A stretch of 60,905 nt of DNA from an uncultured Desulfobacteraceae bacterium (GCA_964440775.1 CAYTXJ010000001.1:1-60905); one strand, 5' to 3'; shown: positions 1 through 60,341, numbered from the stretch's first letter. Numbers and translations: made by a program. Notes: generated by a model not told the origin, from the letters alone.

Positions 1-34
1 AAATTATCCATTGTCAAGTATCTTATTTAAAAAT

Positions 35-188
35 GAAAGCTTTGCATAACCCCCCCTTTTACACTGGGGGTTACACCCCCTTCCAGGTCGGATGACCCTC
101 CGGGTCGGAGACCAGACCCCCAAAAATTAACTTAAAATAACCCAAAATTTCAGCTTTTTTCAGAGAGCTTTAAAAATTTAAAGCTCTC
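35..188 (-). mobile_element. MITE-like intergenic element, copy A (154 bp, reverse orientation; short-type core plus two GGTCnnCCGACC units)
   Basis: Its reverse complement aligns end to end with the copies at 23454-23573 and 35816-35935. The ends are GAGAGCTTTAAA...CAAAGCTTTC. It is flanked by AAAAAT at 29-34 and 189-194. Its hairpin overlaps the last codons of rluD. Confidence 0.8.
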
Positions 189-1132
189 AAAAATATATTC
201 ATATCTTCAGGAATAGGTATGCTGAATTCCATAAATCTCTTTTTATGTGGATGAAGGAATTTAATGAACTGCGCATGGAGCAATTGCCTTTTGACATATC
301 CTTCCAGTCCTTCCAGATTATTCCTCTTCCACCATCTCTTACCTGGCCCATATAAGGAATCACCCACTACAGGGTATCCAATATGTGAAAGATGCACCCT
401 TATCTGATGAGTTCTACCTGTCTTAGGGTATACCATAAGCAGGGAAAACCCTAAGGCAGATCTTCTAATTAGCTCCCATTCAGTAACAGCAGATCTTCCC
501 CCCTCTTTTAAGACCGCCATCTTTTTCCTGTTTTTTGGGTGCCGGCCTATGGAAAGTTCAATCTTACCTTTTTTATGATCTATCATGCCATGAACCACAC
601 ACATATATCTCTTATCAATCTCTCCCCTTTTAAACTGTTCAGATAGGCTCAAATGGGTCTTATCATCCTTTGCAACTAAGAGTAGCCCCGAAGTGTCTTT
701 ATCTAATCTATGGACAATCCCTGGCCTCATCCTTCCTCCAACCTGAGAAAGCCGATTCATATGTTTTAAAAGGCCATGCACCAATGTGCCTCTGTGATGT
801 CCTGCTGAAGGATGGATCACGATACCCGCTGGTTTATTTATTACTAACAGGTACGGGTCTTCATATAGTATTTCAAATTCCACATCTTCAGGGATAAGTT
901 CTACTGTGGGGGAGGTCTCCACTATGGCGCCTTCAATTCTATCTCCCTCCTTTACTCTATAGCTCTGCTTCTGAGTCCTTCCATTTACAAAGATCTTACC
1001 TTCTCTTATGGCAAACTGTATCCGATTCCTGGTAAGATCTCTAACCCTCCTCTGTATTAGGATATCAAGCCTTAACCCCCTTTCCCTTTCTAAGACAATA
1101 AATGAAAATTCTCTTTTCCTTATATCTTTCAA
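170..1132 (-). CDS. rluD: RluA/RluD-family 23S rRNA pseudouridine synthase
   Basis: 320 aa with an S4-like N-terminus, the catalytic motif HRLDKDTSGLLLVAK and GRTHQIRVH. The last 6 codons and the stop lie inside repeat copy A. Confidence 0.9.
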   Translation of the reverse strand: MKDIRKREFSFIVLERERGLRLDILIQRRVRDLTRNRIQFAIREGKIFVNGRTQKQSYRVKEGDRIEGAIVETSPTVELIPEDVEFEILYEDPYLLVINKPAGIVIHPSAGHHRGTLVHGLLKHMNRLSQVGGRMRPGIVHRLDKDTSGLLLVAKDDKTHLSLSEQFKRGEIDKRYMCVVHGMIDHKKGKIELSIGRHPKNRKKMAVLKEGGRSAVTEWELIRRSALGFSLLMVYPKTGRTHQIRVHLSHIGYPVVGDSLYGPGKRWWKRNNLEGLEGYVKRQLLHAQFIKFLHPHKKRFMEFSIPIPEDMNIFLRALNF

Positions 1133-1136
1133 GCTA

Positions 1137-1616
1137 TCAAGATATAATGCTGTCCAGGTCTCTCTCTACCCGCTCTTCTTCGATATTCCTTGCAAGGGAT
1201 ATCTCCTTAACAAGCAGGTTCTTTGCCATATCCAAGATTCGCTTTTCCCCAAATGAAAGCTCTTTTTCTTTTTTTAGCATCAATAGGCTTCTGTAGACCT
1301 CTGCTACTTCAAATAGGGAACCTGTCTTTATCTTTTCCATATATTCCCTGTATCTCCTATTCCAGGTCTGATTACCATTAAGGGGTTCTTTATTCTTTAA
1401 GATGGATATAATCTTAGGTATATCCTCCTCGCCAATCAGATTTCGCAACCCCACCTGTTTTACATTTTGAGTTGGAATCATAATCTTCATGTCATTGTCA
1501 ATAAGACGCATTATATAAAAGTCCTGTTTACAGCCTGAAACTTCCTTAGTCTCAATCTTTTCAATTACCCCAACACCATGTGCTGGATAAACCGCCAAAT
1601 CTCCTGTCTTAAACAT
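1137..1616 (-). CDS. carD: CarD/CdnL-family RNA-polymerase-binding transcription regulator
   Basis: 159 aa. The N-terminus FKTGDLAVYPAHGVGVIEKIE is typical of the CarD_CdnL_TRCF domain. A GAGGGGGA SD precedes the ATG. Confidence 0.85.
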   Translation of the reverse strand: MFKTGDLAVYPAHGVGVIEKIETKEVSGCKQDFYIMRLIDNDMKIMIPTQNVKQVGLRNLIGEEDIPKIISILKNKEPLNGNQTWNRRYREYMEKIKTGSLFEVAEVYRSLLMLKKEKELSFGEKRILDMAKNLLVKEISLARNIEEERVERDLDSIIS

Positions 1617-1675
1617 TATTCATTCCCCCTCTAATAGAATTTGCCCGCCCCGAGTATTTTAGGGCAGGATTAGAA

Positions 1676-3739
1676 TTAGAACTTAAGGAGTATCCCAATA
1701 GCAGGTAATATTGGCGCAATAACAAGGGATACTACTGACATAAGCTTAATAAGGATATTCATTGCAGGGCCAGATGTGTCTTTAAATGGATCTCCTACTG
1801 TATCCCCAACAACAGCTGCCTTATGATTGTCAGAACCCTTTCCGCCCAGATTCCCTGCCTCGATGTATTTCTTGGCATTATCCCATGCACCTCCTCCATT
1901 TGCCATAAACAGCGCCAAAAATGCACCCATAACCGTTGCACCCAAAAGCATTCCACCTAAGGTCTGCTTACCTAAGAAGAATCCCACAAGCACAGGGGTG
2001 AGCACCGCAACCAGCCCAGGAGCTACCATCTTTTTAAGTGCCGCATTGGTTGCAATGGTTACACACTTTGCAGGTTCAGGCTTCGCCCCTTCCTTTCCTT
2101 CTAATAGACCTGGAATCTCCCTAAACTGTCTTCTTATCTCCTCTACAATACTAAAGGCCGCTTCTCCCACTGAGGTCATGGTAAGGGCCGCACAGACCAT
2201 GGGGACAATTGCACCTATAAATGCACCGATTACCACATACGGGTTCATGATACTCAGGCTTTCAAAGCTAAGTCCCGCTGCCTGGGTATATGCCACAAAG
2301 AGAGCCAACGCAGTCAGAGCAGCAGATCCAATAGCAAATCCCTTACCTATTGCAGCAGTAGTATTTCCAAGGGCATCTAAGCTGTCAGTGATCTTTCTTG
2401 TCTCTGGTCCTAAGCCCGACATCTCTGATATTCCACCTGCATTATCCGCAATGGGGCCATAGGCATCAACCGTCATAGTGGCTCCAACGGTTGCAAGCAT
2501 ACCCACAGCACTGAGCCCTATTCCATAGATACCTGCAGCCTTATATGCAATAAAGGTAGCGACACAGATACCCAGGATGGGAAGATAGGTGGATTGCATA
2601 CCTACTGCAAGTCCTGCAATAATTACAGTGGCAGGACCTGTCTTGGACTGCTCAGCTATCCTTCTTATAGGTGGGCCTGAGGTATAGTATTCTGCTAATA
2701 GCCCAATTGCAATACCGCATAGCAGCCCAGAAAATATTGCCCAGAATGCCCCCATGGGCATGGCAATCCCCTTAATAATTATCAGAGTTAAGATGACAAA
2801 TATAAATGCCGCCACAAAGGTTGTATATCTTAAGGCCGCTGCAGGATTGATCCTTTCAAACAGTTTTATGGAAAATACACCCACAAACGAGCTTAAAAGA
2901 CCTGCCATAACCACCAAAAGGGGTGTTGCCATATATTTTAATTTTATGGCTACAGGGTCAAGGCCTTTAAGAACAGGGTGTGCAGCCAAAAATTCAGGTG
3001 TAATGTTCAGTGTGGCACCTATTGCAATGGTGGCAACAACTGATCCCACATAGGATTCAAATATATCCGCTCCCATTCCCGCAATATCACCCACATTATC
3101 ACCCACATTATCCGCAATCACTCCAGGATTTCTGGGATCATCCTCAGGAATCCCGGCCTCTACCTTACCTACAAGATCAGCTCCAACATCCGCTGCCTTT
3201 GTATATACTCCACCTCCCACACGGGCAAATAGGGCTATGGAGCTTGCTCCCATGGCAAATCCATTTATAAACCTTGCCGTCTCAGGGCTCTTTCCGTAAA
3301 TCCAGAACCAGAATCCCAGACCTAAAAGACCAAGACTTGCCACTGCCATACCCATTACAGAGCCCGAAAAATAGGAGACATTAAGGGCTTTTGCCTGGCC
3401 AAACTTATTGGCAGCTTCAGCGGTTCTGGAATTACCCCTTGTTGCAGCGCTCATTCCAGAAAATCCTGCAAACATGGAACAGAAGGCTCCTGTTACAAAT
3501 GCAATGGCAGTCTTCCATGAGATAAAGGTACCTAAGAGTATGAATACCGCCGCAATAAAGAATAAGAGCACCGAATACTCCCTCTTTAAAAAGGCCATTG
3601 CCCCTTCATGGATCATGCTTTCAAGCTCCTGCATAGTCTCATTACCATTGGGCTGCCTTTTTACATAGGAATATATAAGCCAAGCAATGATCAGACCTAC
3701 AATCCCCAGAAACGGCGCATAGACTGTTAATCCTTGCAT
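1676..3739 (-). CDS. hppA: Membrane-integral pyrophosphate-energised cation pump (K+-dependent subfamily signature)
   Basis: 687-aa polytopic protein with motifs [29 protein letters not shown] and [18 protein letters not shown]. Ala rather than Lys in GNTTAA marks K+-dependent enzymes. Confidence 0.95.
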
Positions 3740-4350
3740 TAATCAATTACCTCCTTCTTCTCTAATAAATTTGAGGGATTTATCCTATTCATCGTATAAT
3801 CAATTCCTCTTTGCACAAACCACAAACATGCCATAGCACCTACTTCCACCACCCTGTTTACTATATCCAGCTGATCAGCATAGAATTCGCTTAGCAAAAA
3901 ATCTTCAATGGGCTCTCCGTAGAGTGGTCTTCCAATACCTATCTTAAGCCTATTAAATTCATCGCTCTTAAGATACTTCATTACAGACTCCACGCCCTTA
4001 TGTCCACCAGCACCTCCCTTTCTCACCGCCTTTATCCTGCCCAGAGGGAGATCCAGATCATCATGCACAAGTAACATGTTTCTATAGTCCACACCTGTCT
4101 CCTCAACCCAGAGGGAAATCGCTTCACCACTTCGGTTCATATAGGTAAGGGGACATACCATAACTACCTTCTTCCCTTCCAATTCCACTAAAAGATAACG
4201 AGAAAGAAATCTCTCTTTCTCAATCCTTTTATCCATCGACCCTGCCAGTGCATCCAATACCATAGATCCGATGTTATGGCGGGTATTATTAAATCTCTTT
4301 CCAGGATTTCCCAATCCGGCAATAAAAAAGACCTCTCTTTTTCTATCCAC
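3739..4350 (-). CDS. pth: Peptidyl-tRNA hydrolase
   Basis: 203 aa with GLGNPG...TRHNIG at the N-terminus. The stop overlaps the hppA start (TAATG). Confidence 0.95.
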
Positions 4351-4373
4351 CCCCTTTCCTCTTTATTTTTTAT

Positions 4374-5009
4374 TTATAAGTTAACTTTTTCTTTTTTCTC
4401 TTCTGCTTGTTCTTCCGCCTCCTTTTCCTCCTCTTCAGCAGCCTCAGGTGATGTTACCACTGCCACAGCCTGCTCTGGATCTTCATCAATCTTAATCTCC
4501 TTAGGAATCTCTAAGTCTTTAATATGTAGTGCATCACCTATCTCCAGTTGAGATACATCTGCTTCAATGTGATCCATCAGATACTTTGGGAGACAGGTTA
4601 TACCAAGTTCACGGACAATCTGCTGTAGCACCCCACCTTTTTTAACTCCAACAGGTGTATTAACTAGACGAATGGGAACATCCACACTTATCTCCCTGTC
4701 CATAGAGAGTTCATAAAAATCCACATGTAATATCTCATCGGTTATGGGATTCTGCTGAAGATCTTTTAAAAGCACCAACCTCTTCTCTTTTCCTTTACCA
4801 TCTCTTTCTATATTTAATTCAATAAATATATTCACTTCCTTTGTGGTCTTTATAATCCTATGAATTTCAGAAAGCTCCACTGCTAACATCATATTTTCCT
4901 TCCCAGGCCCATAACATATGCAGGGTATGAGCTTTTTTACCCTCAGCTTCTTTGCCCAGGACTTCCCTTTCTTCTCTCTGAGCTGTGCCTTGACCGCTAT
5001 CTGCTTCAT
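4374..5009 (-). CDS. rplY: 50S ribosomal protein L25 / general stress protein Ctc (long form, acidic tail)
   Basis: The ORF-track start at 5021 is a TTG. The ATG at 5009 has a GGGGGA SD 5 nt upstream. L25 fold plus a Glu/Lys-rich C-terminus. Confidence 0.9.
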   Translation of the reverse strand: MKQIAVKAQLREKKGKSWAKKLRVKKLIPCICYGPGKENMMLAVELSEIHRIIKTTKEVNIFIELNIERDGKGKEKRLVLLKDLQQNPITDEILHVDFYELSMDREISVDVPIRLVNTPVGVKKGGVLQQIVRELGITCLPKYLMDHIEADVSQLEIGDALHIKDLEIPKEIKIDEDPEQAVAVVTSPEAAEEEEKEAEEQAEEKKEKVNL

Positions 5010-5043
5010 CTGATCCCCCAAGATAATTTTTTCACAAAGTCCT

Positions 5044-5071
5044 CAAAAAAATACCCCTCATCTTGAGGGGT
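5044..5071 (-). terminator. Rho-independent terminator downstream of prs
   Basis: On the minus strand, ACCCCTCA-AGA-TGAGGGGT forms an 8-bp stem followed by ATTTTTTTG. Confidence 0.6.
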
Positions 5072-5078
5072 AAAGATT

Positions 5079-6017
5079 TTAGACAAATAAGGTGCTCACT
5101 GATTCTGAATTATATATTCTCTTAATGGTTTCACCCAGCAATTCCGCAACAGATAAGACCTTTATCTTTGTGCATCTCTTCCCCTTTTCCCCAAGCGGAA
5201 TGGTATTGGTGACTACAAGCTCCTCAATGGGTGATTCATCTATTCTTTCAATCGCAGGCCCTGAAAGCACTGCATGGGTGCAACACGCATATACATTTTT
5301 ACTACCCCTCTCTTTCAAGGCAAAGGCCGCTTGAGTCAAAGTGCCACCAGTGTCAACCATATCATCCAATATAACAGCGGTCTTTCCATCTACATTACCG
5401 ATGATATTCATTGCCCGAGATATATTAGGGGCATCTCTTCTTTTATCAATTATAGCCAAAGAGGCATTTAGTCTCTTTGCAAAGGCCCTTGCCCTTTCAA
5501 CACCACCTGCATCAGGTGCGACTATAACAAGATCATTTTGAAAATTCTTTTTTATATATTTTAACAATATAGGAGCAGCGAAGATGTTATCCACAGGAAT
5601 GTTAAAATAGCCCTGAATCTGTCCTGCATGTAGATCCATGGATACCACCCTTTGGGCACCTGCAACGGTGATAAGATCTGCAACAAGCTTTGCACTTATA
5701 GGAACCCGTGGCTTTACCTTCCTGTCCTGTCTACCATATCCATAATAAGGGATCACCGCAGTAATTCGCTTTGCAGATGCCCTTCTAAAGGCATCTATCA
5801 TGATAAGGAGCTCCATGAGATTATCATTTACAGGAGGGCATGTGGACTGTATCACAAATACATCTTTTCCCCTAATATTTTCATGTATCTCTATCTGTAT
5901 TTCACCATCACTAAAGGTGGTAGCGGTGATATCTCCTGGGGGTATACCAAGATATTCACTCACTTCATAGGTAAGCTCTGGATTTGATGATCCTCCAAAA
6001 AGTTTCATTCCTTCCAT
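5079..6017 (-). CDS. prs: Ribose-phosphate pyrophosphokinase (PRPP synthetase)
   Basis: 312 aa with [11 protein letters not shown] and the PRPP-binding loop [12 protein letters not shown]. Confidence 0.95.
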
Positions 6018-6032
6018 CTTGATGCAAATTTC

Positions 6033-6107
6033 TGGCTGGGGTGGGAGGATTCGAACCTCCGAATGCGGGCTCCAAAGGCCCGTGTCTTACCCCTTGACGA
6101 CACCCCA
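6033..6107 (-). tRNA. tRNA-Gln (anticodon UUG), CCA encoded
   Basis: Hand-folded cloverleaf: UGGGGUG/CACCCCA acceptor stem, CGGGC-CUUUGGA-GCCCG anticodon arm, GGAGG-UUCGAAU-CCUCC T arm, discriminator G plus CCA. It parallels E. coli tRNA-Gln. Confidence 0.85.
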
Positions 6108-16607: not shown

Positions 16608-17372
16608 ATGAGTCAACAATTAAAGGTGGTACTTATCATTGCAGGTTCAGATAGCTGTGGGGGGGCAGGGGTGCAGGCCGATATTAAGACGGCTCACCGC
16701 TTGGGGGCCTATCCAATAACAGCAATTACTGCCATCACCTCCCAAAATTCTAAAGGGATATATGATATCTATAAGATACCTGCAAGAGTCTTGGAGACTC
16801 AGATCGAGGCGGTCTTAGAGGAATATTGGCCGGACTCTGTTAAGATAGGCATGATTTATAGTGTGGAAAATGCCAAGGCACTTAAGAATATCTTAAGGAG
16901 ATATGATCTTAAAAATGTGGTCTTAGATCCTGTAATAGTCTCATCAACAGGTGTATCCCTTATGGAAGAAGGGGTAATAGGGATAGTGAAGGAGGAGCTT
17001 TTATCAATGGTATCAATTGTAACTCCCAATATCTATGAGGCAGAGATCATTTCAGAGACCAAGATAGAGGGTGTTGAGGATATGGAAAGGGCAGCTAAAA
17101 TTATCAAAGATATGGGGCCAGATGTGGTAATAACAGGGGGACATCTCAGAGGAGACCTCTGTTTGGATATCTTCTTTGATGGAGAAAAGATCCATAGATT
17201 TGAACATGGAAAGATAGCCTCAGATGCTACACACGGAACCGGCTGTGTATTTTCCACTGCCCTTGTCACCCATATTGCAATGGGTTATAAGAGAGGGGAA
17301 GCGGTAAAGTTATCGGGAGAGCTTACAGTATCCTCTATACATAGGGGATATGGGGGTGTGGTGTTTCCATAA
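16608..17372 (+). CDS. thiD: Hydroxymethylpyrimidine/phosphomethylpyrimidine kinase
   Basis: 254 aa, ribokinase-like, with AGSDSCGGAGVQADIKT and GTGCVFSTAL. Confidence 0.9.
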   Translation: MSQQLKVVLIIAGSDSCGGAGVQADIKTAHRLGAYPITAITAITSQNSKGIYDIYKIPARVLETQIEAVLEEYWPDSVKIGMIYSVENAKALKNILRRYDLKNVVLDPVIVSSTGVSLMEEGVIGIVKEELLSMVSIVTPNIYEAEIISETKIEGVEDMERAAKIIKDMGPDVVITGGHLRGDLCLDIFFDGEKIHRFEHGKIASDATHGTGCVFSTALVTHIAMGYKRGEAVKLSGELTVSSIHRGYGGVVFP

Positions 17373-17373
17373 A

Positions 17374-17568
17374 GAGAGCTTTGAATTTTTTAAAGCTCTC
17401 AGAAAAAGCTGTAAATGGAATCTGTCATTGCGAGGGTCTTAAAAGACCCGAAGCAATCTGAGAATGGTTCTTGGTTCGAGGTTCGGGGGGTAGAAGGGGG
17501 ATGAGATTGCTTCGCTTCGCTCGCAATGACAGGGGTTGTAGTGTAAAAAGGGTTTATGCAAAGCTCTC
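17374..17568 (+). mobile_element. MITE-like intergenic element, copy B (195 bp, long type)
   Basis: It has the GAGAGCTTTGAA hairpin, AGAAAAAGCTGTAA, the GTCATTGCGAG...CTCGCAATGAC palindrome and ...TTATGCAAAGCTCTC. It is flanked by ATAAA at 17369-17373 and 17569-17573. Confidence 0.85.
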
Positions 17569-17621
17569 ATAAAAGTTTAAGAAACTATTTACAATCTATA
17601 TTAAAGTAATTAGACTTTTTA

Positions 17622-17650
17622 AGAGGGTATGTGAGACCCTCTGTTTTTTG
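17622..17650 (+). terminator. Rho-independent terminator-like hairpin between thiD/repeat and thiC
   Basis: AGAGGGT-ATGTGAG-ACCCTCT forms a 7-bp stem followed by GTTTTTTG. It lies only 27 nt upstream of the thiC ATG. Confidence 0.55.
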
Positions 17651-17676
17651 ATTAATTTATATGGAGATAGCTGATT

Positions 17677-23453: not shown

Positions 23454-23573
23454 GAGAGCTTTGAATTTTTCAAAGCTCTCAGAAAAAAGCTGTAATTATG
23501 GGTTATTTTAAGTAAATCTTTGGGGGTCTGGGGGTGTAACCCCCAGTGTAAAAGGGGGTTATGCAAAGCTCTC
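23454..23573 (+). mobile_element. MITE-like intergenic element, copy C (120 bp, short type)
   Basis: It shares its full length with copy E. It is flanked by AAGTT at 23449-23453 and 23574-23578. Confidence 0.85.
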
Positions 23574-28983: not shown

Positions 28984-29010
28984 GAGAGCTTTGAATTTTT
29001 TAAAGCTTTC
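28984..29010 (+). repeat. Solo 27-bp hairpin of the MITE-like family (copy D)
   Basis: GAGAGCTTTGAATTTTTTAAAGCTTTC, flanked by AGGAA at 28979-28983 and 29011-29015. Confidence 0.8.
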
Positions 29011-35815: not shown

Positions 35816-35935
35816 GAGAGCTTTGAATTTTTTAAGGCTCTCAAGAAAAGGCTGTAATTATGGGTTATTTAAAGTTAATTTTTGGGGGTCTGGGGGTGTA
35901 ACCCCCAGTGTAAAAAGGGGTTATGCAAAGCTCTC
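35816..35935 (+). mobile_element. MITE-like intergenic element, copy E (120 bp, short type)
   Basis: Near-identical to copy C. ATGTAA occurs at 35808-35813 and 35936-35941, an imperfect junction duplication. The 3' end contains the zapA ATG. Confidence 0.85.
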
Positions 35936-36204
35936 ATGTAAGAGTAAAGATATTGGACAGTGAATATGTGCTTAAGAGTGAAGAAGAGTTTCAGGAGGTA
36001 TATCGTATTGCTGATTATGTAAACCAAAAGATGAAAGAGGTGAAGAATAATACTGAAGGACTATCAGAGAAGAAGATTGCTATACTGGCAGCACTAAACA
36101 TTGCAAGTGACTATTTTCGATTGCTTAAGGAAAAAGAGGAGCTTATAGACATGATCGGAAGAAAAGCAGAACAACTTATAAGATATATTGATAGATACAT
36201 ATAG
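35923..36204 (+). CDS. zapA: Cell-division protein ZapA
   Basis: 93 aa. VRVKILDSEYVLKS...LSEKKIAILAALNIASDYFRLLKE matches the ZapA pattern. The only start upstream of the conserved N-terminal strand is the ATG inside repeat copy E. Confidence 0.8.
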   Translation: MQSSHVRVKILDSEYVLKSEEEFQEVYRIADYVNQKMKEVKNNTEGLSEKKIAILAALNIASDYFRLLKEKEELIDMIGRKAEQLIRYIDRYI

Positions 36205-36323: not shown

Positions 36324-36350
36324 GAGAGCTTTGAATTATTCAAAGCTCTG
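36324..36350. repeat. Solo hairpin of the MITE-like family (copy F, degenerate)
   Basis: GAGAGCTTTGAATTATTCAAAGCTCTG. No flanking duplication was seen. Confidence 0.7.
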
Positions 36351-36399
36351 CTCTCGTTATATCTTATATCTCTGTTACATTCTGAGGGGGTGAAGTTAT

Positions 36400-37962
36400 A
36401 TGGATCTTTTGCACGCAATATTAGGTGGTTTAGCAGTTCTAGTATTGGGCTTTATAATAGGATTTTGGCTCAGAAGGAAGCTATCCGAAAAAGAGCTTCA
36501 ATCTATAAAGGAATATTCTAAAAAGCTCATAAATGATGCCCATAGAGAGGCCAAAAATATAAAGAAAGAGGCCATGATAAAGGCAAAAGATACTCTTTAT
36601 CAGATGAAACTTGAATTTGAAAGGGAAACCCGGGAGACCAGGGAGCAGCTTCAGGCACAAGAACGGAGACTGTTTCATAAACAGGAGGCACTGGATAGAA
36701 AGATTGAACTCTATGAGCAGAAGGGGAGGGGGTTAAAGGAAAAGGAAAAAAATCTTGAGCGGATAGAAAGTGAGCTTGTTCAAAAGCAGGATGAATATGA
36801 AAGACTTATTGAGGAGAGAAAGAAGGAGCTGGAACGGGTTGCTGGAATTTCTAGGGAGGAGGCAAAGCAGCTTCTGATTGAGAGTATGGAATCTGAAGCA
36901 AGGCATGAGGCAATAAAGCTGATTAAAAAGATTGAAACCGAGGCAAGGGAAAGTGCTAAACAGAAGGCAGAGGAGATAATAGCCCTTGCCATTCAGAGAT
37001 ATGCAGGGGAGTATGTGAGTGAAAAGACCGTAGCTGTAGTAAATTTACCTAATGAGGAGATGAAAGGCAGGATAATAGGAAGAGAAGGAAGAAATATCAG
37101 GGCAATTGAGGCAGCCACAGGTGTGGATCTCATCATAGATGATACTCCAGAGGCGGTGATAGTTTCTGCATTTAATCCTATAAGAAGAGAGGTTGCAAAG
37201 ATTGCCCTTCAGAGGCTGATTGATGATGGAAGAATCCATCCTGCCAGGATTGAGGAGATGGTAGAGAAGGTGAGAGAGGAGATTGAACAGAGCATAAAGG
37301 AGGCAGGGGAGCAGGCTGCTTTTGATGTGGGAGTTCATGGGATCCATCCTGAACTTATAAAGCTGCTTGGAAGATTAAAATACAGGTCCAGTTACGCACA
37401 GAATGTGCTTCAGCACTCCAAAGAGGTGAGCTTTCTCTGTGGTATCATGGCAGCAGAGCTGGGATTAAATGTTAAGAGGGCCAAGAGAGCAGGGCTGTTA
37501 CATGATATTGGAAAGGCCGTGGATCATGAAGTGGAAGGTCCCCATGCACTGATCGGGGCAGATCTTGCCAAAAAATTTGGGGAGTCTAATGAGGTGGTGC
37601 ATGCCATAGCTGCTCATCATGAAGAGGTTCAGCCAGAGACCGCCTTAGCGGTTATTGTTCAGGCTGCAGACAGCCTCTCTGGGGCAAGGCCCGGGGCAAG
37701 GCAGGAGATGCTTGCCTCATATGTAAAGAGGCTGGAAGAACTTGAAAATATAGCCAACTCCTTTAAGGGAGTGACCAAGTCCTTTGCCATACAGGCAGGT
37801 AGAGAGATCAGGGTTATGGTTGCAGAGGATCTTGTAGATGATGATAAGACCTATATGCTCTGCAAAGAGATTGCCAAAAGGATAGAAAAGGAATTAACAT
37901 ATCCAGGGCAGATTAAGGTCACGGTTATAAGAGAGACCAGAGCAGTGGACTATGCAAAATAG
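36400..37962 (+). CDS. rny: Ribonuclease Y
   Basis: 520 aa with an N-terminal TM, a coiled coil, a KH domain ([15 protein letters not shown]) and an HD domain (LLHDIGKA). Confidence 0.95.
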
Positions 37963-38125
37963 AGAGCTTTGAATTTTTCAAAGCTCTCAGAAAAAAGCTG
38001 TAAATGGAATTTGTCATTGCGAGGGTCTTAAAAGACCCGAAGCAATCTATAAAAGGTATGAGATTGCTTCGCTTCGCTCGCAATGACAGGGGTCGCAGTG
38101 TAAAAAGGGGTTATGCAAAGCTCTC
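37962..38125 (+). mobile_element. MITE-like intergenic element, copy G (164 bp, long type)
   Basis: Its first G is the last base of the rny TAG. It is flanked by AAATA at 37957-37961 and 38126-38130. It contains the GTCATTGCGAG palindrome at 38013-38087. Confidence 0.85.
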
Positions 38126-53137: not shown

Positions 53138-53639
53138 ACTGATTACAGGCCTCTTTTCCTCTGACAGGACTCTTATATTTAAAGTTATTGAAGAGCTTGA
53201 ACAGATATTTGGAGACATAGACTGGATAAGCCATGAACTTTCCTTTGACAGAACAAGATATTATGAAAAGGAGATGGGTTGGCCCCTCTGGAGAAGATTT
53301 TTATCCTTTAAAAGGCTTATAGATCCAGAGGATATCGCAGATATTAAGATTACCACAAATGAGGTGGAAAAGAGGTATTTAAGAGGCAATAAGAGGATGA
53401 TAAATATTGATCCTGGATATATCTGCCTTGAGAGATTGATCCTTGCAACCGGGAAAAACTATGCACACAGAATATATCTAAACAGAGGTATCTATGCAGA
53501 TCTCACACTGATATATAAAAAGGGAAGTTTTATTCCTTTAGGATGGACATATAAGGACTATGCAGATCCTGAGATCATAAGGCTGTTTAATATAATACGA
53601 GATGCCTATAAGAGGCAGATAAGAGGGATACACCTATAG
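53106..53639 (+). CDS. Conserved hypothetical protein, DUF4416-like
   Basis: 177 aa with NIDPGYICLERLILATGKNYAHRIYL. It overlaps ugd by 32 nt. Its TAG stop is the first three bases of repeat copy H. The family name is from memory. Confidence 0.5.
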   Translation: MSLPREPEKAKLITGLFSSDRTLIFKVIEELEQIFGDIDWISHELSFDRTRYYEKEMGWPLWRRFLSFKRLIDPEDIADIKITTNEVEKRYLRGNKRMINIDPGYICLERLILATGKNYAHRIYLNRGIYADLTLIYKKGSFIPLGWTYKDYADPEIIRLFNIIRDAYKRQIRGIHL

Positions 53640-53884
53640 AGCTTTGAATTTTTCAGAGCTCTCAGAAAAAGCCGTAAATGGAATCTGTCATTGCGAGGGT
53701 CTTAAAAGACCCGAAGCAATCTGAGAATGGTTCATGGTTCGAGGTTATAGGTTCGGGGGTTAAAAGGGGGGATGAGATTGCTTCGCTTCGCTCGCAATGA
53801 CAGGGGTCTGGTCTCCGACCTGGAGCGGTCTCCGACCCGGAGGGGGTGTAATCCCCAGTGTAAAAAGGGTTATGAAAAGCTCTC
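53637..53884 (+). mobile_element. MITE-like intergenic element, copy H (248 bp, composite type)
   Basis: It combines the long-type palindrome, two GGTCTCCGACCyGGAG units and the short-type 3' module. It is flanked by ACCTA at 53632-53636 and 53885-53889. Confidence 0.85.
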
Positions 53885-54789: not shown

Positions 54790-54804
54790 CCTGAGGAGTA
54801 TCTT

Positions 54805-55080
54805 ATGAGTAATAGATTAATAAATATCGGTTTTGGAAATTCCGTTGTAAGGGACAGGATCGTGGCAATCATCTCTCCTAATACCGCTCCCGCAAAGAGA
54901 TTAAGGGAGGAGGCAAGGAGAGAAAATCGCCTTATTGATGCTACTCAAGGAAGAAAGACAAGATCTCTTATCATTACAGACAGTAATCATGTGATCCTCT
55001 CTGCGGTTCAGACAGAGACCATCGCTCAGAGATTTTCCACAGACTCTCGGAATCCTCAGGATGAGATATCTCAGATATGA
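54805..55080 (+). CDS. remA: DUF370/RemA-family regulator
   Basis: 91 aa with [29 protein letters not shown], between yicC and gmk as in Firmicutes. Confidence 0.85.
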
Positions 55081-55688
55081 AAGGCCACCTCTTTGTGATA
55101 TCTGGTCCATCTGGAGTGGGTAAATCTACTATTATAACATATTTGCTCAAAAAGATTCCTCATATTCGATATTCCGTATCTTACACCACAAGGCCTCCAC
55201 GCAGAGGAGAGGTGGATGGCAAAGACTATAATTTCATAAGTAAGGCTGAATTTAAGGAGATGATAAGAAAGGGTGAGTTTATTGAATGGGCGGAAGTATA
55301 TGGAAATCTCTATGGCACCTCGTATAGATTCATTTATGAAGTTATGGAGCAAGGAGAAGATGTGATAATGGATATAGATCCAAAGGGTGCAAGAAATATA
55401 AGAGATAAGATAGACCACTCCCATCTGATATTCATTCTTCCTCCTTCTGTAGAAGAGCTTTTTAAAAGGCTTAAAGGAAGAAAGACAGACAGTGATGAGA
55501 TAATAGATAGGAGATTGAGGCAGGTATTTCAGGAGCTTAGAGAGTCAAGATGGTATCACTATGTGGTTATAAATGATGATATGGCCTCAGCCATAAGGGC
55601 GGTGGAGGCCATAATAATATCATTTAGATATCTAAGGGAGAGGATCTCCAATAGGATTGAAGATATAATTAATGGGTATAAAGGATAA
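55077..55688 (+). CDS. gmk: Guanylate kinase
   Basis: 203 aa with the P-loop GPSGVGKST and the TTRPPR motif. Confidence 0.95.
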
Positions 55689-56418
55689 AGAGATAGTTGG
55701 TGGATTTCAGACTGTAAGACATCTTCTGGAAAGAGATGATATCAGAATACACGAGATATGGATACAGGTAAGATCGCAGAGAAGAGAAGGGATCTTAGAG
55801 AAGGCACATAAAAGGAGTATCCCTGTATATTTCAAAGAAAAAGAGGATTTCAACCACTTACTTTCAGGGATAAATCATCAAGGTGTGGCAGCAGTTGTGG
55901 ATGCATTTAGATATCAGAGCCTTCAATCCATTCTATCTCTGGCAGTGAAGAAGAGGGGCACAGCTCTGATAGTGATGGCAGATCATATAACCGATGCAGG
56001 GAATATAGGGGCCCTTCTAAGGGTCTGTGCATTTTTTAAGGTAGATGGTTTCATAATTCCAGCAAGAAGATCCGCATCAATAAGTGGGCAGGTTATGAAG
56101 AGATCATCAGGTGGATATCTATCTGTTCCCATAGCTAAGGTATCCAACCTTAAAAATACCGCGCTCAGACTCAAAAGAGAGGGGTTCTGGATAATAGGCA
56201 CGGATGAGAGGGCTAAAGAGAGTATATACGATTTTGACTGGAGGCGGGATGTGGCACTCATCGTCGGAAGTGAGGAAAGAGGAATTAATCATAGTTTGGT
56301 AAAGATATGTGATGAGTTGGTATCTATCCCATCTGATGGAGATATCAGTAGCCTAAATGTCTCAGTTGCACTTGGAATTGTATTATCTGAAATCCATAGA
56401 CAGAGACGGTTTAATTAA
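55672..56418 (+). CDS. rlmB: SpoU/TrmH-family 23S rRNA 2'-O-methyltransferase (RlmB-like)
   Basis: 248 aa with an N-terminal substrate-binding domain and C-terminal SpoU motifs (LIVGSEERGI, IPSDGDISSLNVSVA). Confidence 0.8.
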   Translation: MGIKDKEIVGGFQTVRHLLERDDIRIHEIWIQVRSQRREGILEKAHKRSIPVYFKEKEDFNHLLSGINHQGVAAVVDAFRYQSLQSILSLAVKKRGTALIVMADHITDAGNIGALLRVCAFFKVDGFIIPARRSASISGQVMKRSSGGYLSVPIAKVSNLKNTALRLKREGFWIIGTDERAKESIYDFDWRRDVALIVGSEERGINHSLVKICDELVSIPSDGDISSLNVSVALGIVLSEIHRQRRFN

Positions 56419-57021
56419 AGGAAAGCTCTTTAAGGCCCTTAGCCTTAAGAGTGCATCTATTAGCTCTGCCAAGGGAAGTCCTACCACATTGCTATAACTT
56501 CCCCTTATCTCCTTTACCATAAATGCTCCTATTCCCTGAATGGCATATGCACCTGCCTTTCCAAAAGGCTCTCCAGTGTTGATATAATTTATTATCTCAG
56601 AGTCAGACAATTTTTTAAATCTGACATAAGTCACTACTGCCTCACAATATGCCCTTTGACCCTGAGGATCAATTATTGAAAATCCTGTTATAACCTGATG
56701 CTCTCTCCCTCTTAGCTCCATAAGTATATTTAAGGCATCTCTTTCATCTTTTGGCTTTCCGATGATCTTATCTGATATATATACCAAGGTATCTGCACCC
56801 AGAATCCACTTCCCCCTATACCTATCCCTTACCGATTCTGCCTTTAGAGTTGCCAGATGAATGGCAAGATTCCTTACATCTCCCTTATTATGGATTACCT
56901 CATCCAGATGTGATTCTTCCACTATAAAAGGTAAATGTAGCTGTGATAAAAGCGATTTTCTCCTCTTAGAGGAAGAGGCAAGTATCAATGGATTGCTATG
57001 GGATATGCAGGAATCTACCAT
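56383..57021 (-). CDS. maf: Maf-family nucleoside triphosphate pyrophosphatase
   Basis: 212 aa with LILASSSKRRKSLL and GKAGAYAIQG. The 3' end overlaps the convergent rlmB by 36 nt. Confidence 0.9.
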   Translation of the reverse strand: MVDSCISHSNPLILASSSKRRKSLLSQLHLPFIVEESHLDEVIHNKGDVRNLAIHLATLKAESVRDRYRGKWILGADTLVYISDKIIGKPKDERDALNILMELRGREHQVITGFSIIDPQGQRAYCEAVVTYVRFKKLSDSEIINYINTGEPFGKAGAYAIQGIGAFMVKEIRGSYSNVVGLPLAELIDALLRLRALKSFPLIKPSLSMDFR

Positions 57022-57022
57022 C

Positions 57023-57796
57023 CTAACTTATGTTGAATAGGGATATGGTATTTTGATAGATTCTATGACTCAGTTCTTCCAGATCCATTTCTCTAAGCTC
57101 TGCAATCTTCTCTGCAGTATATATCACAAAGGAAGGCTCATTTCTCTTCCCTCTCATGGGTTGAGGGGATAGAAATGGGGAGTCTGTTTCGACAAGAAGG
57201 CGATCCAAAGGCATCTCCTTTACCACCTCATGCAGATTTTCAGATCCTTTATAGGTAATAGTTCCAGCTATTGATATATATAGCCCCATATCCAAAAATC
57301 TCTTTGCCATATTGTAATTACCAGAAAAACAGTGGACCACACCGACTATTCTGTCTCTCCCCTTTGACTTAAGCACAGATATGGCCTCTTCAAAGGCATC
57401 CCTGATATGGAGAATCACTGGGAGCCTTAGCTCTTTGGAAAGATCCAGCATCTGGTTAAGTACCCTAACTTGATTGGATATTTCAGAATATCTCTTATAA
57501 AAGTCAAGGCCGATCTCTCCCACTGCCACTATCTTAGGATCTCCTGAAAGTTCCTTCAGCCTATCCAATATGGATTCTTCAAATCTGTCTGCCTCATGGG
57601 GATGAAAGCCTATGGTCGTATAAACCCCTTCAAACCTCTTTGAAAGCTCAAGGGATCTAATGGAGCTTTCCACATCTATCCCTATGGATATGATCTTTTC
57701 AATCCCCCTTTCCCTTGCCCTGGAGATAACCATTTCAATATCGTCTCTAAAATGATCCATCTCCAGATGGGCATGGGAATCTATCAATCTGGGCAA
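57023..57796 (-). CDS. tatD: TatD-family metal-dependent hydrolase/DNase
   Basis: 257 aa with LIDSHAHL and ETDSPFL. Confidence 0.9.
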   Translation of the reverse strand: MPRLIDSHAHLEMDHFRDDIEMVISRARERGIEKIISIGIDVESSIRSLELSKRFEGVYTTIGFHPHEADRFEESILDRLKELSGDPKIVAVGEIGLDFYKRYSEISNQVRVLNQMLDLSKELRLPVILHIRDAFEEAISVLKSKGRDRIVGVVHCFSGNYNMAKRFLDMGLYISIAGTITYKGSENLHEVVKEMPLDRLLVETDSPFLSPQPMRGKRNEPSFVIYTAEKIAELREMDLEELSHRIYQNTISLFNIS

Positions 57797-57889
57797 CTTT
57801 TTCCTCCTTAAAAATTAATGACTTGCATTTTTGAATATAATACTAAATAATATTAAAAATATAGGGTATGTAAAATATTTTTATTTCCA

Positions 57890-60214
57890 ATGGTAAAAAA
57901 TATGGAGGCCTATTCAAAGATTGAGGAGCGTTCCCAGGAGGAACTTGAAAGGGAGCTCTTATTCCATAAGAAGCTTCAGGATATAACCAATAAGATACAC
58001 TCTGCGGAAGATACCAATGAGATTTTGGAAAACCTCCAACACGAGATCTTAAGCCTCTTTGACGCAGATAGAATCACCATATATGTGGTTGATGGTGTTA
58101 GACGAGAGATCTACTCCCGCTTCAAGACAGGAGATGAAGTAAATGAGATAAGGATACCCATTAATACCAATAGCATTGCAGGCTTTTGCGTATCTACAGG
58201 AAAGACAGTAAGGATAAAGAATGCATATGATGATGAAGAGCTCAAAAGGATAAGTCCATCCCTTAAATTTGACAAGAGGTGGGATAAGAAGACAGGATAC
58301 AGGACAAGACAGGTGCTTGTAACTCCCATAGTGTTTAAGAAATATCTATTGGGTGCTATCCAGCTTATTAATAAAGCCGGTGGTAATGAATTTACAGAAA
58401 AGGATGAATCCGCTGTAAAAGAGATTGCAAGGGTCTTGGGTATAGCCTTTTTTAAGAATCAAAAGATAGCGGAAAGGAAGAGAGCTACCAAATTTGACTA
58501 TCTCATTACCCATAATATAATCACTGAAAAAGAGCTTAACGAGGCAATGGCAACCGCAAGGAAGAAGAAGGTGTCAGTGGAGTCCGTGCTCATATCTGAT
58601 TTTAATGTCCCTAAGGAGGAGATTGGCAAATCCCTATCCCAATACTACAGAGTGCCTTTTATTTCATATGACGAAAATATGGTAATTCCAGGTGAACTCT
58701 TAAAGGGGTTAAGACCCAATTTTTTAAAGAATAATGGATTTGTTCCCATTGCACAGACCGATAGTAAGGTAGTGGTGGCAATGGAAAATCCAGATCATCT
58801 GCCTGCCAGAGATACCATAAAGAGACTGATACCGGATAAGGAGTTCAGATATTGTGTGGCCATAAAAGAGGATATCTTAAAGATAGTGGATCTATTTTTT
58901 GATGTTAAGAAGAGCAATTTCATGGGAGATACCAGGAGCATTGAAGATATACTTGGGAAACTTGAGGGACTTGAAGAAGAAGAAGAGGATGAGGAAGTAG
59001 AAAGGGTAAGTGAAGAAGATGGAGTTATTGTCCAATTAGTTAATAAGATGATCATAGATGCCCATAGCAGAAATGCTTCAGATATACATGTCGAGCCCAG
59101 ACCGGGCAAGCAGAATGCGGTTATAAGATTCAGGATTGATGGTGCATGCCAGCTCTATCAGACCATCCCCTATACTTTTAAGAGGGCTATAGTATCCAGA
59201 ATTAAGATTATGTCAGATCTGGATATATCTGAAAGGAGACTGCCCCAGGACGGAAAGATAAAATTTAAAAAATATGCCCCCCTGGATATTGAGTTAAGAG
59301 TCGCCACCATCCCTACCGCAGGTGGTGTTGAAGATGTGGTTCTGAGACTCCTGGCCTCTGGAGAACCCATCCCCTTAGAAAAGATGGGGATGAGGGAGAG
59401 GGACTATAAGGCATTCATTGATATGATAACAAAGCCATATGGGATTGTGCTGGTGGTGGGTCCTACAGGTTCTGGAAAGACCACCACACTTCATGCAGCC
59501 CTTAAATATATTAATAAACCAGAGGTAAAGATCTGGACTGCTGAAGATCCTGTAGAGATAACCCAGGAGGGGCTCAGGCAGGTTCAGGTTCAGCCCAAGA
59601 TCGGTTTTGATTTTGCAAGGGCTATGAGGGCATTCCTCAGAGCAGACCCTGATGTGATAATGGTAGGGGAGATGAGAGACCATGAGACAGTTGCAACTGC
59701 AATTGAGGCATCCCTTACTGGTCACTTAGTATTTAGCACCCTGCATACCAATAGTGCCCCTGAGACCATTACAAGGCTATTGGATATGGGAATGGATCCA
59801 TTTAATTTTGCAGATGCGATCTTAGGAATTCTGGCCCAGAGGCTTGTAAGGACCCTATGTAAAGACTGTAAAGAGAAGTATCATCCAACACAAGAGGAAT
59901 TTGACACACTGAGAAGGGAATATGATGGAGATTTTGATGCACTTGGTTTTGAATATAACAGCGATCTTGTCCTTTACAGAGCAAAGGGATGTGCCAAGTG
60001 TGGAAACACAGGATACAGGGGAAGGGTTGCAATTCATGAGCTGCTTGTGGGAACAGATGAGATGAAGTCATTGATTCAGAACAGGGCAAAGATGGAAGAG
60101 CTGAGGCGGCAGGCCATAAAAGATGGAATGATCACCCTTATGCAGGATGGTATCAGAAAGGTGCTATTGGGATATACTGATCTAATACAGGTAAGAAAGG
60201 TCTGTATAAAATAG
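57890..60214 (+). CDS. GAF-domain-fused GspE/PilB-family secretion/pilus assembly ATPase (orphan)
   Basis: 774 aa. An N-terminal GAF-like domain (about residues 30-190) and a T2SSE_N/MshEN-like domain precede the ATPase core, which has Walker A GPTGSGKTT, Walker B DPDVIMVGEMRD, His box GHLVFSTLHTN and tetracysteine CKDC...CAKC. Confidence 0.85.
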   Translation: MVKNMEAYSKIEERSQEELERELLFHKKLQDITNKIHSAEDTNEILENLQHEILSLFDADRITIYVVDGVRREIYSRFKTGDEVNEIRIPINTNSIAGFCVSTGKTVRIKNAYDDEELKRISPSLKFDKRWDKKTGYRTRQVLVTPIVFKKYLLGAIQLINKAGGNEFTEKDESAVKEIARVLGIAFFKNQKIAERKRATKFDYLITHNIITEKELNEAMATARKKKVSVESVLISDFNVPKEEIGKSLSQYYRVPFISYDENMVIPGELLKGLRPNFLKNNGFVPIAQTDSKVVVAMENPDHLPARDTIKRLIPDKEFRYCVAIKEDILKIVDLFFDVKKSNFMGDTRSIEDILGKLEGLEEEEEDEEVERVSEEDGVIVQLVNKMIIDAHSRNASDIHVEPRPGKQNAVIRFRIDGACQLYQTIPYTFKRAIVSRIKIMSDLDISERRLPQDGKIKFKKYAPLDIELRVATIPTAGGVEDVVLRLLASGEPIPLEKMGMRERDYKAFIDMITKPYGIVLVVGPTGSGKTTTLHAALKYINKPEVKIWTAEDPVEITQEGLRQVQVQPKIGFDFARAMRAFLRADPDVIMVGEMRDHETVATAIEASLTGHLVFSTLHTNSAPETITRLLDMGMDPFNFADAILGILAQRLVRTLCKDCKEKYHPTQEEFDTLRREYDGDFDALGFEYNSDLVLYRAKGCAKCGNTGYRGRVAIHELLVGTDEMKSLIQNRAKMEELRRQAIKDGMITLMQDGIRKVLLGYTDLIQVRKVCIK

Positions 60215-60314
60215 AGCTTATTATTTTGGGGAAGATCTAACGCAAGTTCAGGAAACTATCCAAAACATTAAAAACTTGCCTAAAAATGATTTAAAAATTC
60301 TTTTATATAGAGCT

Positions 60315-60341
60315 GAGAGCTTTGAAAAATTCAAAGCTCTC
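60315..60341 (-). repeat. Solo 27-bp hairpin of the MITE-like family (copy I)
   Basis: GAGAGCTTTGAAAAATTCAAAGCTCTC. The A-rich loop implies reverse orientation. No flanking duplication was seen. Confidence 0.75.

Follow-up and report, generated by a model that had tools for sequence, protein, structure and literature searches.

Prokaryotic MITEs have been defined in two reviews (PMC10969869 and PMC11602168), and MITEAba12 (PMC6382973) is one example. They are shorter than 500 bp, non-coding and bounded by terminal inverted repeats of at least 10 bp; they occur as many dispersed copies in AT-rich intergenic targets, form stable secondary structure and, as a trait of younger copies, are flanked by short direct repeats. 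The repeat family described here, found in a window of 60,905 nt (the whole stretch of DNA that was analysed), resembles them in each of these respects. Indeed, its size, terminal inverted repeats, duplications, empty or polymorphic orthologous sites and dispersed copy number are those of a MITE, and we consider it probable, at roughly 0.85, that the repeats are a MITE family, gene-less mobile DNA that has recently been inserting beside core genes of an uncultured sulfate-reducer-like bacterium. Unlike typical MITEs, the family has no known cognate insertion sequence, its left end is doubled into a hairpin, its duplications vary in length and its core is a mosaic of exchangeable modules.

Other described systems share some of these traits. 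The ends of the Tn3 family and of its miniature derivatives (TIMEs) are about 38 bp long and start with GGGG, and the duplication is fixed at 5 bp. AT-rich 5-bp duplications, the commonest length here, recall TIMEs, but these were rejected as a class because the ends here are 10-13 bp long and start with GAGAGC and the duplications span 4-8 bp, often 6. Correia elements of Neisseria and RUP of pneumococcus are MITEs with a fixed TA dinucleotide duplication that affect the expression of neighbouring genes; a high copy number beside core genes and internal length variants are common to them and to the present family, yet IS630/Tc1-derived MITEs of this type were likewise rejected, as the duplications here are 4-8 bp long and of varied sequence. 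REPs are associated with a RAYT gene and insert without duplicating their target. Short intergenic hairpins with an orientation bias are also a feature of REP/REPIN sequences, from whose RAYT-mobilised members the family is separated by its duplications and clean empty sites and by a window that holds no Y1 gene. BOX elements of Streptococcus pneumoniae and BIMEs of E. coli combine, as the present copies do, conserved end modules with internal modules that vary in number and type and with strong secondary structure; to our knowledge, neither definition includes terminal inverted repeats together with target duplications, whereas the family here has both. One review that mentions BOX elements also covers Rickettsia palindromic elements (PMC10969869), in which, as here, insertions touching coding sequence are tolerated through in-frame reading. 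However, the Rickettsia elements sit inside genes and add peptide segments, while the present copies lie at gene ends, replacing a start or abutting a stop.

The first-pass annotation had listed nine repeat loci in the window, and all of them are present: an nhmmer profile built from 45 long copies (those of the window and of a sister-species MAG, plus one copy from another MAG) recovers exactly these nine over the whole 60,905 nt. In particular, the 27-nt hairpin GAGAGCTTTGAA-TTT-TTCAAAGCTCTC is matched with at most 3 mismatches at 17374, 23454, 28984, 35816, 36324, 37962, 53637 and 60315, and the ninth locus, at 35-188 on the minus strand, carries the compensated variant GAGAGCTTTAAATTTTTAAAGCTCTC; 0 hairpin matches are expected in shuffled sequence, against nine loci found. 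Together the copies take up 1082 nt, or 1.78% of the window, in agreement with the earlier estimate of about 1.1 kb and 1.8%. They are the following:

35..188, minus strand: long copy of 154 nt, A core plus module C; duplication AAAAAT at 29-34 and 189-194
17374..17568, plus strand: long copy of 195 nt, B core with a nested palindrome at 17424-17530; duplication ATAAA
23454..23573, plus strand: basic 120-nt copy, A core; duplication AAGTT; upstream of mreB
28984..29010, plus strand: 27-nt solo hairpin; duplication AGGAA; between rodA/ftsW and a bactofilin gene
35816..35935, plus strand: basic 120-nt copy inside the first few codons of zapA
36324..36356, plus strand: remnant, made of the hairpin plus GCTCTC, a right-end remnant at 36351-36356
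37962..38125, plus strand: long copy of 164 nt, B core with a nested palindrome at 38013-38087; duplication AAATA
53637..53884, plus strand: long copy of 248 nt, B core (palindrome 53687-53801) plus two module C units (53811 and 53828); duplication ACCTA
60309..60341, minus strand: solo hairpin (60315-60341) followed by a right-end remnant, AGCTCT on the minus strand

The six flanking direct repeats that had been reported (AAAAAT, ATAAA, AAGTT, AGGAA, AAATA and ACCTA) are each exact and abut both element ends. Missed at that stage was the duplication of the copy at 35816, which is 7-8 bp long and imperfect (ATGTAAAg / ATGTAAG). The solo hairpin at 60309..60341, whose right-end remnant reads AGAGCT at 60309-60314 on the plus strand, has no flanking duplication.

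Several copies are in close contact with genes. The one at 35..188 lies just downstream of a pseudouridine synthase gene (170-1132, minus strand) and overlaps its stop, and the one at 17374..17568 lies between thiD and thiC, its ATAAA duplication including the thiD stop codon TAA (17370-17372). At the 37962 copy, the TAG stop of RNase Y consists of TA from the flank and the first G of the element, and the first base of the copy at 53637 is T, not G, which yields the TAG stop of a DUF4416 gene.

The family extends well beyond the window. A scan with the hairpin pattern found at least 50 additional stretches, of which 49 lie in a single sister-species MAG; since these loci were fetched by the exact pattern, the conservation of the hairpin among them is an ascertainment effect. 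Independent assemblies from ENA and JGI contain the window copies too, and a Logan contig includes part of the rny region.

The 45 long copies measure 76-280 nt, mostly 116-280 nt with a single copy of 76 nt, and have the ends GAGAGCTTTG...CAAAGCTCTC. The shared 3' end ...GTGTAAAAAGGGGTTATGCAAAGCTCTC and the inverted repeats of the outer 10 nt, both claimed previously, are borne out in the six long copies of the window, with the outer 10 nt perfect and 12/13 positions matching when extended. The left end is directly followed by its own inverted copy and a 12-bp hairpin is thus formed, which folded as DNA reaches -11.1 kcal/mol (z = -5.8); in 5 of the 45 long copies its loop is flipped, with AAA replacing TTT. 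On the 3' side of the hairpin follow AGAAAAAAGCTGTAA, a variable core, a GC hairpin (CTGGGGGTGTAACCCCCAG) in some cores, and the 3' end. The GC hairpin is present in A- and C-type cores and missing from two of the three B-core copies of the window; in the DNA fold of copy 23454-23573, it forms an 8-bp hairpin next to the 12-bp 5' hairpin (z = -5.6). Module C consists of two GTCTCCGACC-type units of 16-17 nt, and the nested palindrome of the B core, seen in three window copies, is widespread in unrelated viral contigs. Thus, the six copies described as full-length do share their ends, but their cores are mosaics of different modules and not one sequence. These modules are swapped at fixed loci: at 35-188, the copy-specific ends are shared with other assemblies of the species, in which the core between them is a different one. 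The 120-nt consensus has stop codons in all six frames, and the elements encode no protein. Searched with Rfam at gathering scores, the window matched only tRNA-Gln, and the 248-nt copy gave no match at E up to 1.

Evidence for transposition comes from the junctions. An exact repeat of at least 4 bp is found at the junctions of 28 of the 45 long copies, whereas 2000 permutations of the flanks averaged 1.36 such copies and never exceeded 7, so that copies outside the window also carry duplications far above the shuffled-flank expectation. The repeats measure 5 bp in 12 copies, 6 bp in nine, 4 bp in three, and 7 and 8 bp in two each, while the remaining 17 copies have 2 bp or less; a further metagenome copy has ATAGCT on both sides. 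The exact 5-bp duplications noted in the first-pass annotation are therefore real, but their length is not fixed at 5. The duplicated targets are 81% A+T, against 59% in the surrounding DNA, and on the element strand they contain 46% A and 35% T. A spread of 4-8 bp is unusual for a single DDE transposase and is a weakness of the MITE reading, as are the 17 copies with 2 bp or less. Variable length and A-rich targets are, on the other hand, typical of target-primed reverse transcription, by which a non-autonomous retroelement could have spread. We regard this as extremely improbable: the copies have terminal inverted repeats, the long copies show neither a 3' A-tail nor a 5' truncation series, no reverse transcriptase gene was seen nearby, and we know of no bacterial element of such a kind.

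The second line of evidence is given by orthologous sites in a sister species with about 92% nucleotide identity to the window, compared at loci and strains that include L056, L057 and L058. Where a site is unoccupied, the duplicated target is present once and not twice. At the 28984 site, L056 and L057 lack exactly 32 nt (27 + 5) and have a single AGGAA; the 35816 site is empty in L056, L057 and L058 (catatgtaaa/agtaaag); and, conversely, GAGATT repeats flank a 120-nt copy in L057, and L056, L060 and the window have a single GAGATT at that position. Besides these clean empty alleles at three sites, a fourth site, 36324, is polymorphic, being occupied by the remnant in the window and by a full-length copy in sister strain L058, and empty in L056 and L057. 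As the orthologous sites are empty with a single target copy, the elements are real insertions, and as not only the sister species but also strains within one species differ in these insertions, their activity is recent. The permuted-flank excess and the single-target empty sites are the outcomes of the two refutation tests set in the first-pass annotation, and both support its proposal of a MITE-like, non-autonomous transposon whose junction duplications are footprints of transposition.

The same sites bear on the origin of the solo hairpins. All three 27-nt hairpins proposed as solo copies are present, but they are better read as deletion derivatives than as a separate element class, and at least two of the three look like internal deletions; in particular, the remnant at 36324..36356 is apparently an imprecise internal deletion of a long copy. 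The order of events might instead be reversed, with the 27-nt hairpin as the primary two-end mobile unit and the long copies arising when a CAAAGCTCTC-ending segment is added beside a resident hairpin. Indeed, some solo hairpins have exact duplications of their own (AGGAA at window 28984, 6 bp at L001, 7 bp at L009 and 5 bp at L048), and the difference between solo and long forms is bounded by a 10-bp direct repeat, readable as a duplication. In addition, at the RNase Y site (37962), L056, L058 and the more divergent contig L061 carry the 27-nt hairpin alone between the same AAATA repeats, the long form being present only in the window species. However, L061 is identical to L056 around the hairpin despite about 80% gene identity, and may therefore be a chimeric contig and not an outgroup. 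Moreover, two window solos keep a right-end fragment (GCTCTC and AGCTCT), the trace expected of an imprecise internal deletion, L058 carries a full copy precisely at the remnant site of the window, and long copies entered fully empty sites that held no prior hairpin (that of L057 and window 35816). A length of 27 bp would also be very short for bringing two ends together. We thus judge this order of events improbable and favour deletion from long copies.

Placement and orientation have been evaluated from stop-to-stop ORFs, not curated gene calls: between co-directional ORFs, 20 copies point in the same direction as the genes and 4 in the opposite one (p = 0.0015). At the 3' end, the elements carry the Shine-Dalgarno-like AAAAAGGGG plus an ATG. 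Fifteen copies read openly into a downstream ORF of at least 80 codons, and in 10 of them this ATG shares the frame of the ORF (p = 0.0085). At the 35816 copy, the ATG lies at 35923 and continues in frame into the remainder of zapA, giving a 93-aa ORF at 35923-36204; the copy has replaced the start of this cell-division gene in the window. Co-orientation with genes and in-frame starts above chance could also be expected from a host regulatory cassette, made of mRNA-stabilising hairpins and a translation start and spread by recombination or gene conversion in place of transposition, and the core exchange at a fixed locus does show gene conversion acting on the copies. Nevertheless, recombination does not leave short target duplications, each specific to its site, at dozens of unrelated places, the empty sites hold a single target copy, and a benefit to the host is compatible with a MITE as a secondary effect. 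A cassette spread without transposition is very unlikely. An equally slight chance is assigned to REP/REPIN-like palindromes spread by a RAYT-type (Y1 HUH) single-strand transposase that recognises hairpins on single-stranded DNA. Recognition of this kind would also explain the strong orientation bias, and the prominent terminal hairpin and its flipped loops fit it. IS200/IS605 and RAYT-type transposition, though, leaves the target unduplicated and requires a fixed short target, while the duplications here differ in sequence from site to site, directly adjoin both ends and occur once in empty sites; nor was a Y1 transposase gene seen in the window or, by Pfam label, among the genes of the fetched loci.

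As previously stated, the window has no transposase: Pfam scans of 30 ORFs gave core genes only, and the labels of syntenic sister-genome genes were likewise core genes with no transposase. About 0.5 Mb of loci fetched from these genomes contained neither matching ends spaced 0.6-6 kb apart and flanked by a duplication of 5 bp or more, nor long inverted repeats paired around an ORF, nor an ORF in several copies; viral contigs, plasmids and one metagenome scan likewise yielded no autonomous element with matching ends. Since MAGs usually lose insertion sequences, this absence is weak evidence. The inverted repeat matched no named IS family in this analysis either, and we can name none that fits a 13-bp end, a hairpin-doubled left end and a variable 4-8 bp stagger at AT-rich targets.

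For the MITE family, the following course of events can be proposed. A transposase encoded elsewhere, most likely of DDE type, would bind both ends and insert the element at AT-rich targets via a staggered cut, usually of 5 or 6 bp (range 4-8), whose repair would produce the flanking duplication. Recombination or slippage between the direct CAAAGCTCTC copies, one within the hairpin and one at the right end, may then delete the interior and leave the 27-nt solo hairpin, and cores are swapped between copies after insertion. The survivors would be found mainly at gene boundaries and oriented as the genes, where the 5' part may abut or supply stop codons and the 3' end may supply AAAAAGGGG and an ATG able to serve the downstream gene. 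It is conceivable, though on balance doubtful, that a yet-undescribed type of transposase is combined here with a portable gene-boundary cassette retained by the host. In the cassette part, hairpins and stops would close the upstream gene and the outward AAAAAGGGG-TT-ATG would open the downstream one, which would explain both the orientation bias and the excess of in-frame ATGs.

Collectively, the family adds a new member to a familiar class of elements. The sequences searched did not reveal the enzyme responsible for its movement, and the current understanding of bacterial MITEs is not overturned. A dense and recently active MITE expansion, about 1.8% of a core-gene contig, is documented in an uncultured Thermodesulfobacteriota lineage, where mobile elements otherwise go unseen, since MAGs tend to lose their insertion sequences. 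Assemblies are interrupted by the copies, with contigs ending inside them or switching flanks there, and as the copies vary from strain to strain they have consequences for the binning, strain typing and gene calling of such metagenomes. Concrete questions that can be put to the test are raised by the partner transposase, the varying length of the duplication and the exchange of core modules in situ, and the copies remodel gene ends, as exemplified in the window by the start of zapA.

The nine repeat loci listed by the first-pass annotation were recovered both by matching of the hairpin and by a profile HMM. The 27-nt hairpin GAGAGCTTTGAA-TTT-TTCAAAGCTCTC is found at eight of them with at most three mismatches (0 expected from shuffles), and the ninth, at 35-188, carries a hairpin variant with one G-C pair replaced by A-T on both sides. 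The HMM, built from 45 copies, detects exactly nine loci in the window, which together make up 1082 nt, or 1.78% of its length:

35-188, reverse strand: long copy, AAAAAT on both sides
17374-17568, forward strand: long copy, ATAAA on both sides
23454-23573, forward strand: long copy, AAGTT on both sides
28984-29010, forward strand: solo hairpin, AGGAA on both sides
35816-35935, forward strand: long copy
36324-36350, forward strand: solo hairpin
37962-38125, forward strand: long copy, AAATA on both sides
53637-53884, forward strand: long copy, ACCTA on both sides
60315-60341, reverse strand: solo hairpin

Reading every locus with its flanks bore out the common ends proposed earlier. Indeed, the 5' hairpin is present in all nine loci, the shared 3' end is GTGTAAAAAGGGGTTATGCAAAGCTCTC, and the boundaries of the element are GAGAGCTTTG...CAAAGCTCTC, with terminal inverted repeats that are perfect over 10 nt and match at 12 of 13 positions when extended. 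All six of the flanking direct repeats that had been reported are also there. No transposase is present in the window, as originally stated, and the remaining content is core genes, including those for H+-pyrophosphatase, prs, serA, metG, thiD/thiC, mnmE, yidC, mreBCD, the ATP synthase operon, zapB/zapA, rny and polA, among others. An Rfam search of the elements returned no matching family. The thiD-thiC spacer (17373-17676) contains the 195-nt copy, and no TPP riboswitch or other Rfam family was found upstream of thiC at gathering score. In some fetched copies the hairpin loop reads AAA, not TTT, relative to the element (full copies L044, L018, L020, L040 and L050; truncated copies L019, L010 and L035); the loop has been inverted as a whole, not altered by three point mutations, and template switching within the palindrome could be its source.

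The RNase Y encoded in the window has an identical counterpart in NCBI, under the name 'Desulfobacteraceae bacterium'. The next relative, at 96% amino-acid identity, lies on a 164.7-kb contig of the MAG CBFDUE01, a sister species that shares about 92% nucleotide identity with the window across 22 kb with gene order conserved. Sample names such as DOMB18-1_SAMN06251742 suggest to us an origin in Guaymas Basin hydrothermal sediment. When the hairpin pattern was run against a set with one genome for each species, at least 50 stretches matched; among the matches listed, 49 are from the sister MAG and the remaining one from another Desulfobacteraceae MAG, and the repeats are the only sequence that these stretches share with the window. 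The set of 45 long copies combines those of the window with those of the fetched loci. As retrieval used the hairpin only, their flanks are unbiased, while hairpin covariation among the fetched loci was set aside because the exact hairpin pattern had retrieved them. Contig ends of CBFDUE01 also hold Nextera sequence (CTGTCTCTTATACACATCT...ATCTCGTATGCCGTCTTCTGCTTG), at the reverse-strand end of L008 and at about 5060-5139 of L020, which is untrimmed adapter contamination of the deposited assembly.

The flanks of the 45 copies carry direct repeats far more often than expected by chance. In particular, 28 of the 45 have an exact junction repeat of at least 4 bp, whereas 2000 permutations of the right flanks among copies, with 1.36 such copies on average, never gave more than 7. 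Flank permutation took the place of a 'shifted junction' control, which was uninformative since a one-base shift cuts the repeat by just one.

Exact junction repeats in the 45 long copies (length: number of copies)
2 bp or less: 17
4 bp: 3
5 bp: 12
6 bp: 9
7 bp: 2
8 bp: 2

The length of the duplication is truly variable, because 6-bp repeats directly at both ends are not explicable as 5-bp repeats lengthened by chance, and the duplicated sequence is richer in A+T than the surrounding DNA (81% versus 59%). Variable length is the only feature that would fit a retroelement. Spread through recombination alone cannot account for the family, being unable to make site-specific duplications.

The sister species and its strains provide the comparison that decides the matter. 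In the atpC-zapB interval, strain L057 has a 120-nt copy with GAGATT on each side, while the window, L056 and L060 lack the element and keep one GAGATT. Similarly, the solo hairpin at 28984 is missing in L056 and L057, which are shorter by exactly 27 + 5 nt and keep one AGGAA; empty sites with a single copy of the target, which the first-pass annotation had proposed to look for, thus exist. The copy at 35816 is missing in L056, L057 and L058, and the site of the window remnant at 36324-36356 is empty in L056 and L057 and occupied by a full-length copy in L058. Across the same 22 kb, four sites are occupied in the window and one in L056; L057 and L058 each add a site that is unoccupied in L056. 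Turnover has therefore been high, both over the 8% divergence and inside one species. No additional presence/absence polymorphism was found at the thiD, DUF4416 and mreB loci in same-species contigs. Spread of the RAYT/REP type fails in the face of both the duplications and the empty sites.

The solo hairpins are read as deletion derivatives. The hairpin includes an inverted copy of the left end, so in a long copy CAAAGCTCTC occurs twice in direct orientation, in the hairpin and again at the right end. A deletion from one to the other would produce precisely a 27-nt hairpin that keeps its original duplication, as at the orthologue of copy 37962, where the sister species has the hairpin alone between identical AAATA repeats. 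Part of the right end survives in two of the three window solos (hairpin + GCTCTC; hairpin + AGCTCT), which are imprecise deletions. The opposite order, in which hairpins came first and long copies grew from them, is contradicted by these right-end remnants and by the long copies that occupy sites wholly empty in relatives. Even so, the clean solo at 28984 may have been inserted directly as a 27-nt hairpin.

All long copies have in common roughly their first 42 nt and last 30 nt, and differ in the interior, which is built from interchangeable parts:

A core: TTATGGGTTATTTTAAGTTAATTTTTGGGGGTCTG, then a GC hairpin, GGGGGTGTAACCCCC
B core: long branched palindrome, GTCATTGCGAG..CGAAGCAATC - loop - GATTGCTTCG..CTCGCAATGAC
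Module C: 16-17-nt units, GTCTCCGACCCGGAGG / GTCATCCGACCTGGAAG, in tandem, from one to at least three; window 97-112 and 53811-53843, and L004, L006, L011, L018, L024, L030 and L032

The B-core palindrome folds as DNA at -26.2 kcal/mol (z = -8.2), and some copies have two or more. The number of C units differs among elements, forming a minisatellite-like array inside the MITE. In independent assemblies of the window species, the locus at 35-188 keeps its flanks and copy-specific end variants and differs in its core:

A+C, as in the window: contigs L169 and L170
B: contigs L168 (10944-11109) and L172
Plain A: contig L171

The cores therefore appear to be swapped in place, in the simplest case by gene conversion between copies; standing variation in the population would be the alternative.

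The elements are also oriented with respect to genes. Between co-directional ORFs, 20 copies have the orientation of the genes and 4 the opposite one (p = 0.0015), and all six long window copies are co-oriented. In about a dozen copies, the upstream stop codon and the first base of the element lie at most a few bases apart, and some of these stops are completed by the element's own G or GA. Stop codons are not the cause of the bias, because the element has them in all frames and both orientations. At its 3' end, AAAAAGGGG-TT-ATG-CAAAGCTCTC, the element carries an ATG. Of the 15 copies that are open into an ORF downstream of 80 codons or more, 10 have this ATG in frame (5 expected, p = 0.0085). 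The copy at 35816 is inserted among the first few zapA codons, and its ATG at 35923 now heads a 93-aa ORF. Judging from sequence, downstream genes may use the start signal of the element. No convincing promoter or terminator was found in the 120-nt copy. On the reverse strand of L048 (about 700-874), a B-core copy without right end has ...GTGTAAAAAGGAG 8 nt 5' of the ATG of a downstream ORF that starts MALIVQKYGGTSV..., and the Shine-Dalgarno sequence of this ORF may derive from the element.

Inverted ends, duplications of variable sequence, clean empty sites and no ORF identify a non-autonomous DNA transposon moved in trans, according to the definitions used for this anatomy (PMC10969869, PMC11602168). 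A candidate partner was sought in several ways. Searching for two ends separated by 20-6000 bp and bordered by a junction repeat gave short elements, plus three pairs of 2.5-3.3 kb judged to be chance, their junction repeat being only 4 bp. Among inverted repeats of 15 bp or more with a spacing of 0.6-4 kb, none formed an IS-like unit; the L003 pair surrounds an ATPase-like and a short aspartic-protease-like ORF (by eye), with no evident transposase. No multi-copy protein emerged when 389 ORFs of the loci were compared all against all, viral contigs scanned for the hairpin and for the 3' end yielded 0 matches, one metagenome scan for 3' ends in atypical context gave a single ordinary 120-nt copy, and blastn against plasmids gave nothing relevant. 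Extension of the left end of the window through another assembly reached just another MITE copy (in L168, a further copy begins about 190 nt beyond the window start), a look-up past the right end gave nothing, and literature searches with the strings GAGAGCTTTG, CATTGCGAG, CGCAATGAC and ISDol1 yielded nothing useful. The absence of the partner is weak negative evidence because MAGs rarely keep insertion sequences. The standard source of such duplications is a DDE-type enzyme with a staggered cut, and an enzyme of this type acting in trans would generate those seen here. We know of no IS family that combines ends starting with GAGAGC and AT-rich duplications of 4-8 bp.

The elements also fragment assemblies. 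Many contigs end within a copy, and two public contigs of the window species pass into unrelated flanking DNA exactly at or inside one (L179, join at about 1214; L193, join at 556 = window 23453), which may reflect chimeric joins or mark real rearrangements.

The palindrome nested in the B core has a distribution of its own:

Window 17424-17530, 38013-38087 and 53687-53801: nested palindromes
L063-L167: stretches of viral contigs
L023:3213-3244: fetched stretch
L207, L208 and L209 (1-850) and L179:1150-1935: window-species contigs with a 197-aa ORF

It is not specific to the MITE family: in IMG/VR viral contigs of 35-71% G+C, 105 stretches contain an exact match to the 26-mer GTCATTGCGAGCGAAGCGAAGCAATC, which is the reverse-complemented right arm of the window palindrome. 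About half of these are units of around 80 nt (GTCATTGCGAG-x-AAGCAATCC, a variable hairpin, GGATTGCTT-y-CTCGCAATGAC), and 43 of 51 viral units lack a flanking duplication. Rfam gave no family for the palindrome, only miRNA-precursor models far under threshold, and literature string searches found nothing. In the window species, the left MITE end and left palindrome arm are followed, after 73 nt, by the 197-aa ORF, whose stop codon adjoins the right arm, with no MITE 3' end after it. The product combines a DUF3782-like coiled coil and a PD-(D/E)XK-like core and has more than 1200 homologues, most on short contigs. This nuclease-like ORF was considered as the palindrome's own gene and rejected; two homologues from other taxa lack the arms and viral contigs have no homologues, so the association is not general.

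Collectively, these data indicate that the repeats are a real, recently active and modular MITE family, a new example of a kind already known, and that the palindrome it carries is a sequence-invariant structured unit common to very different hosts, which merits separate study.
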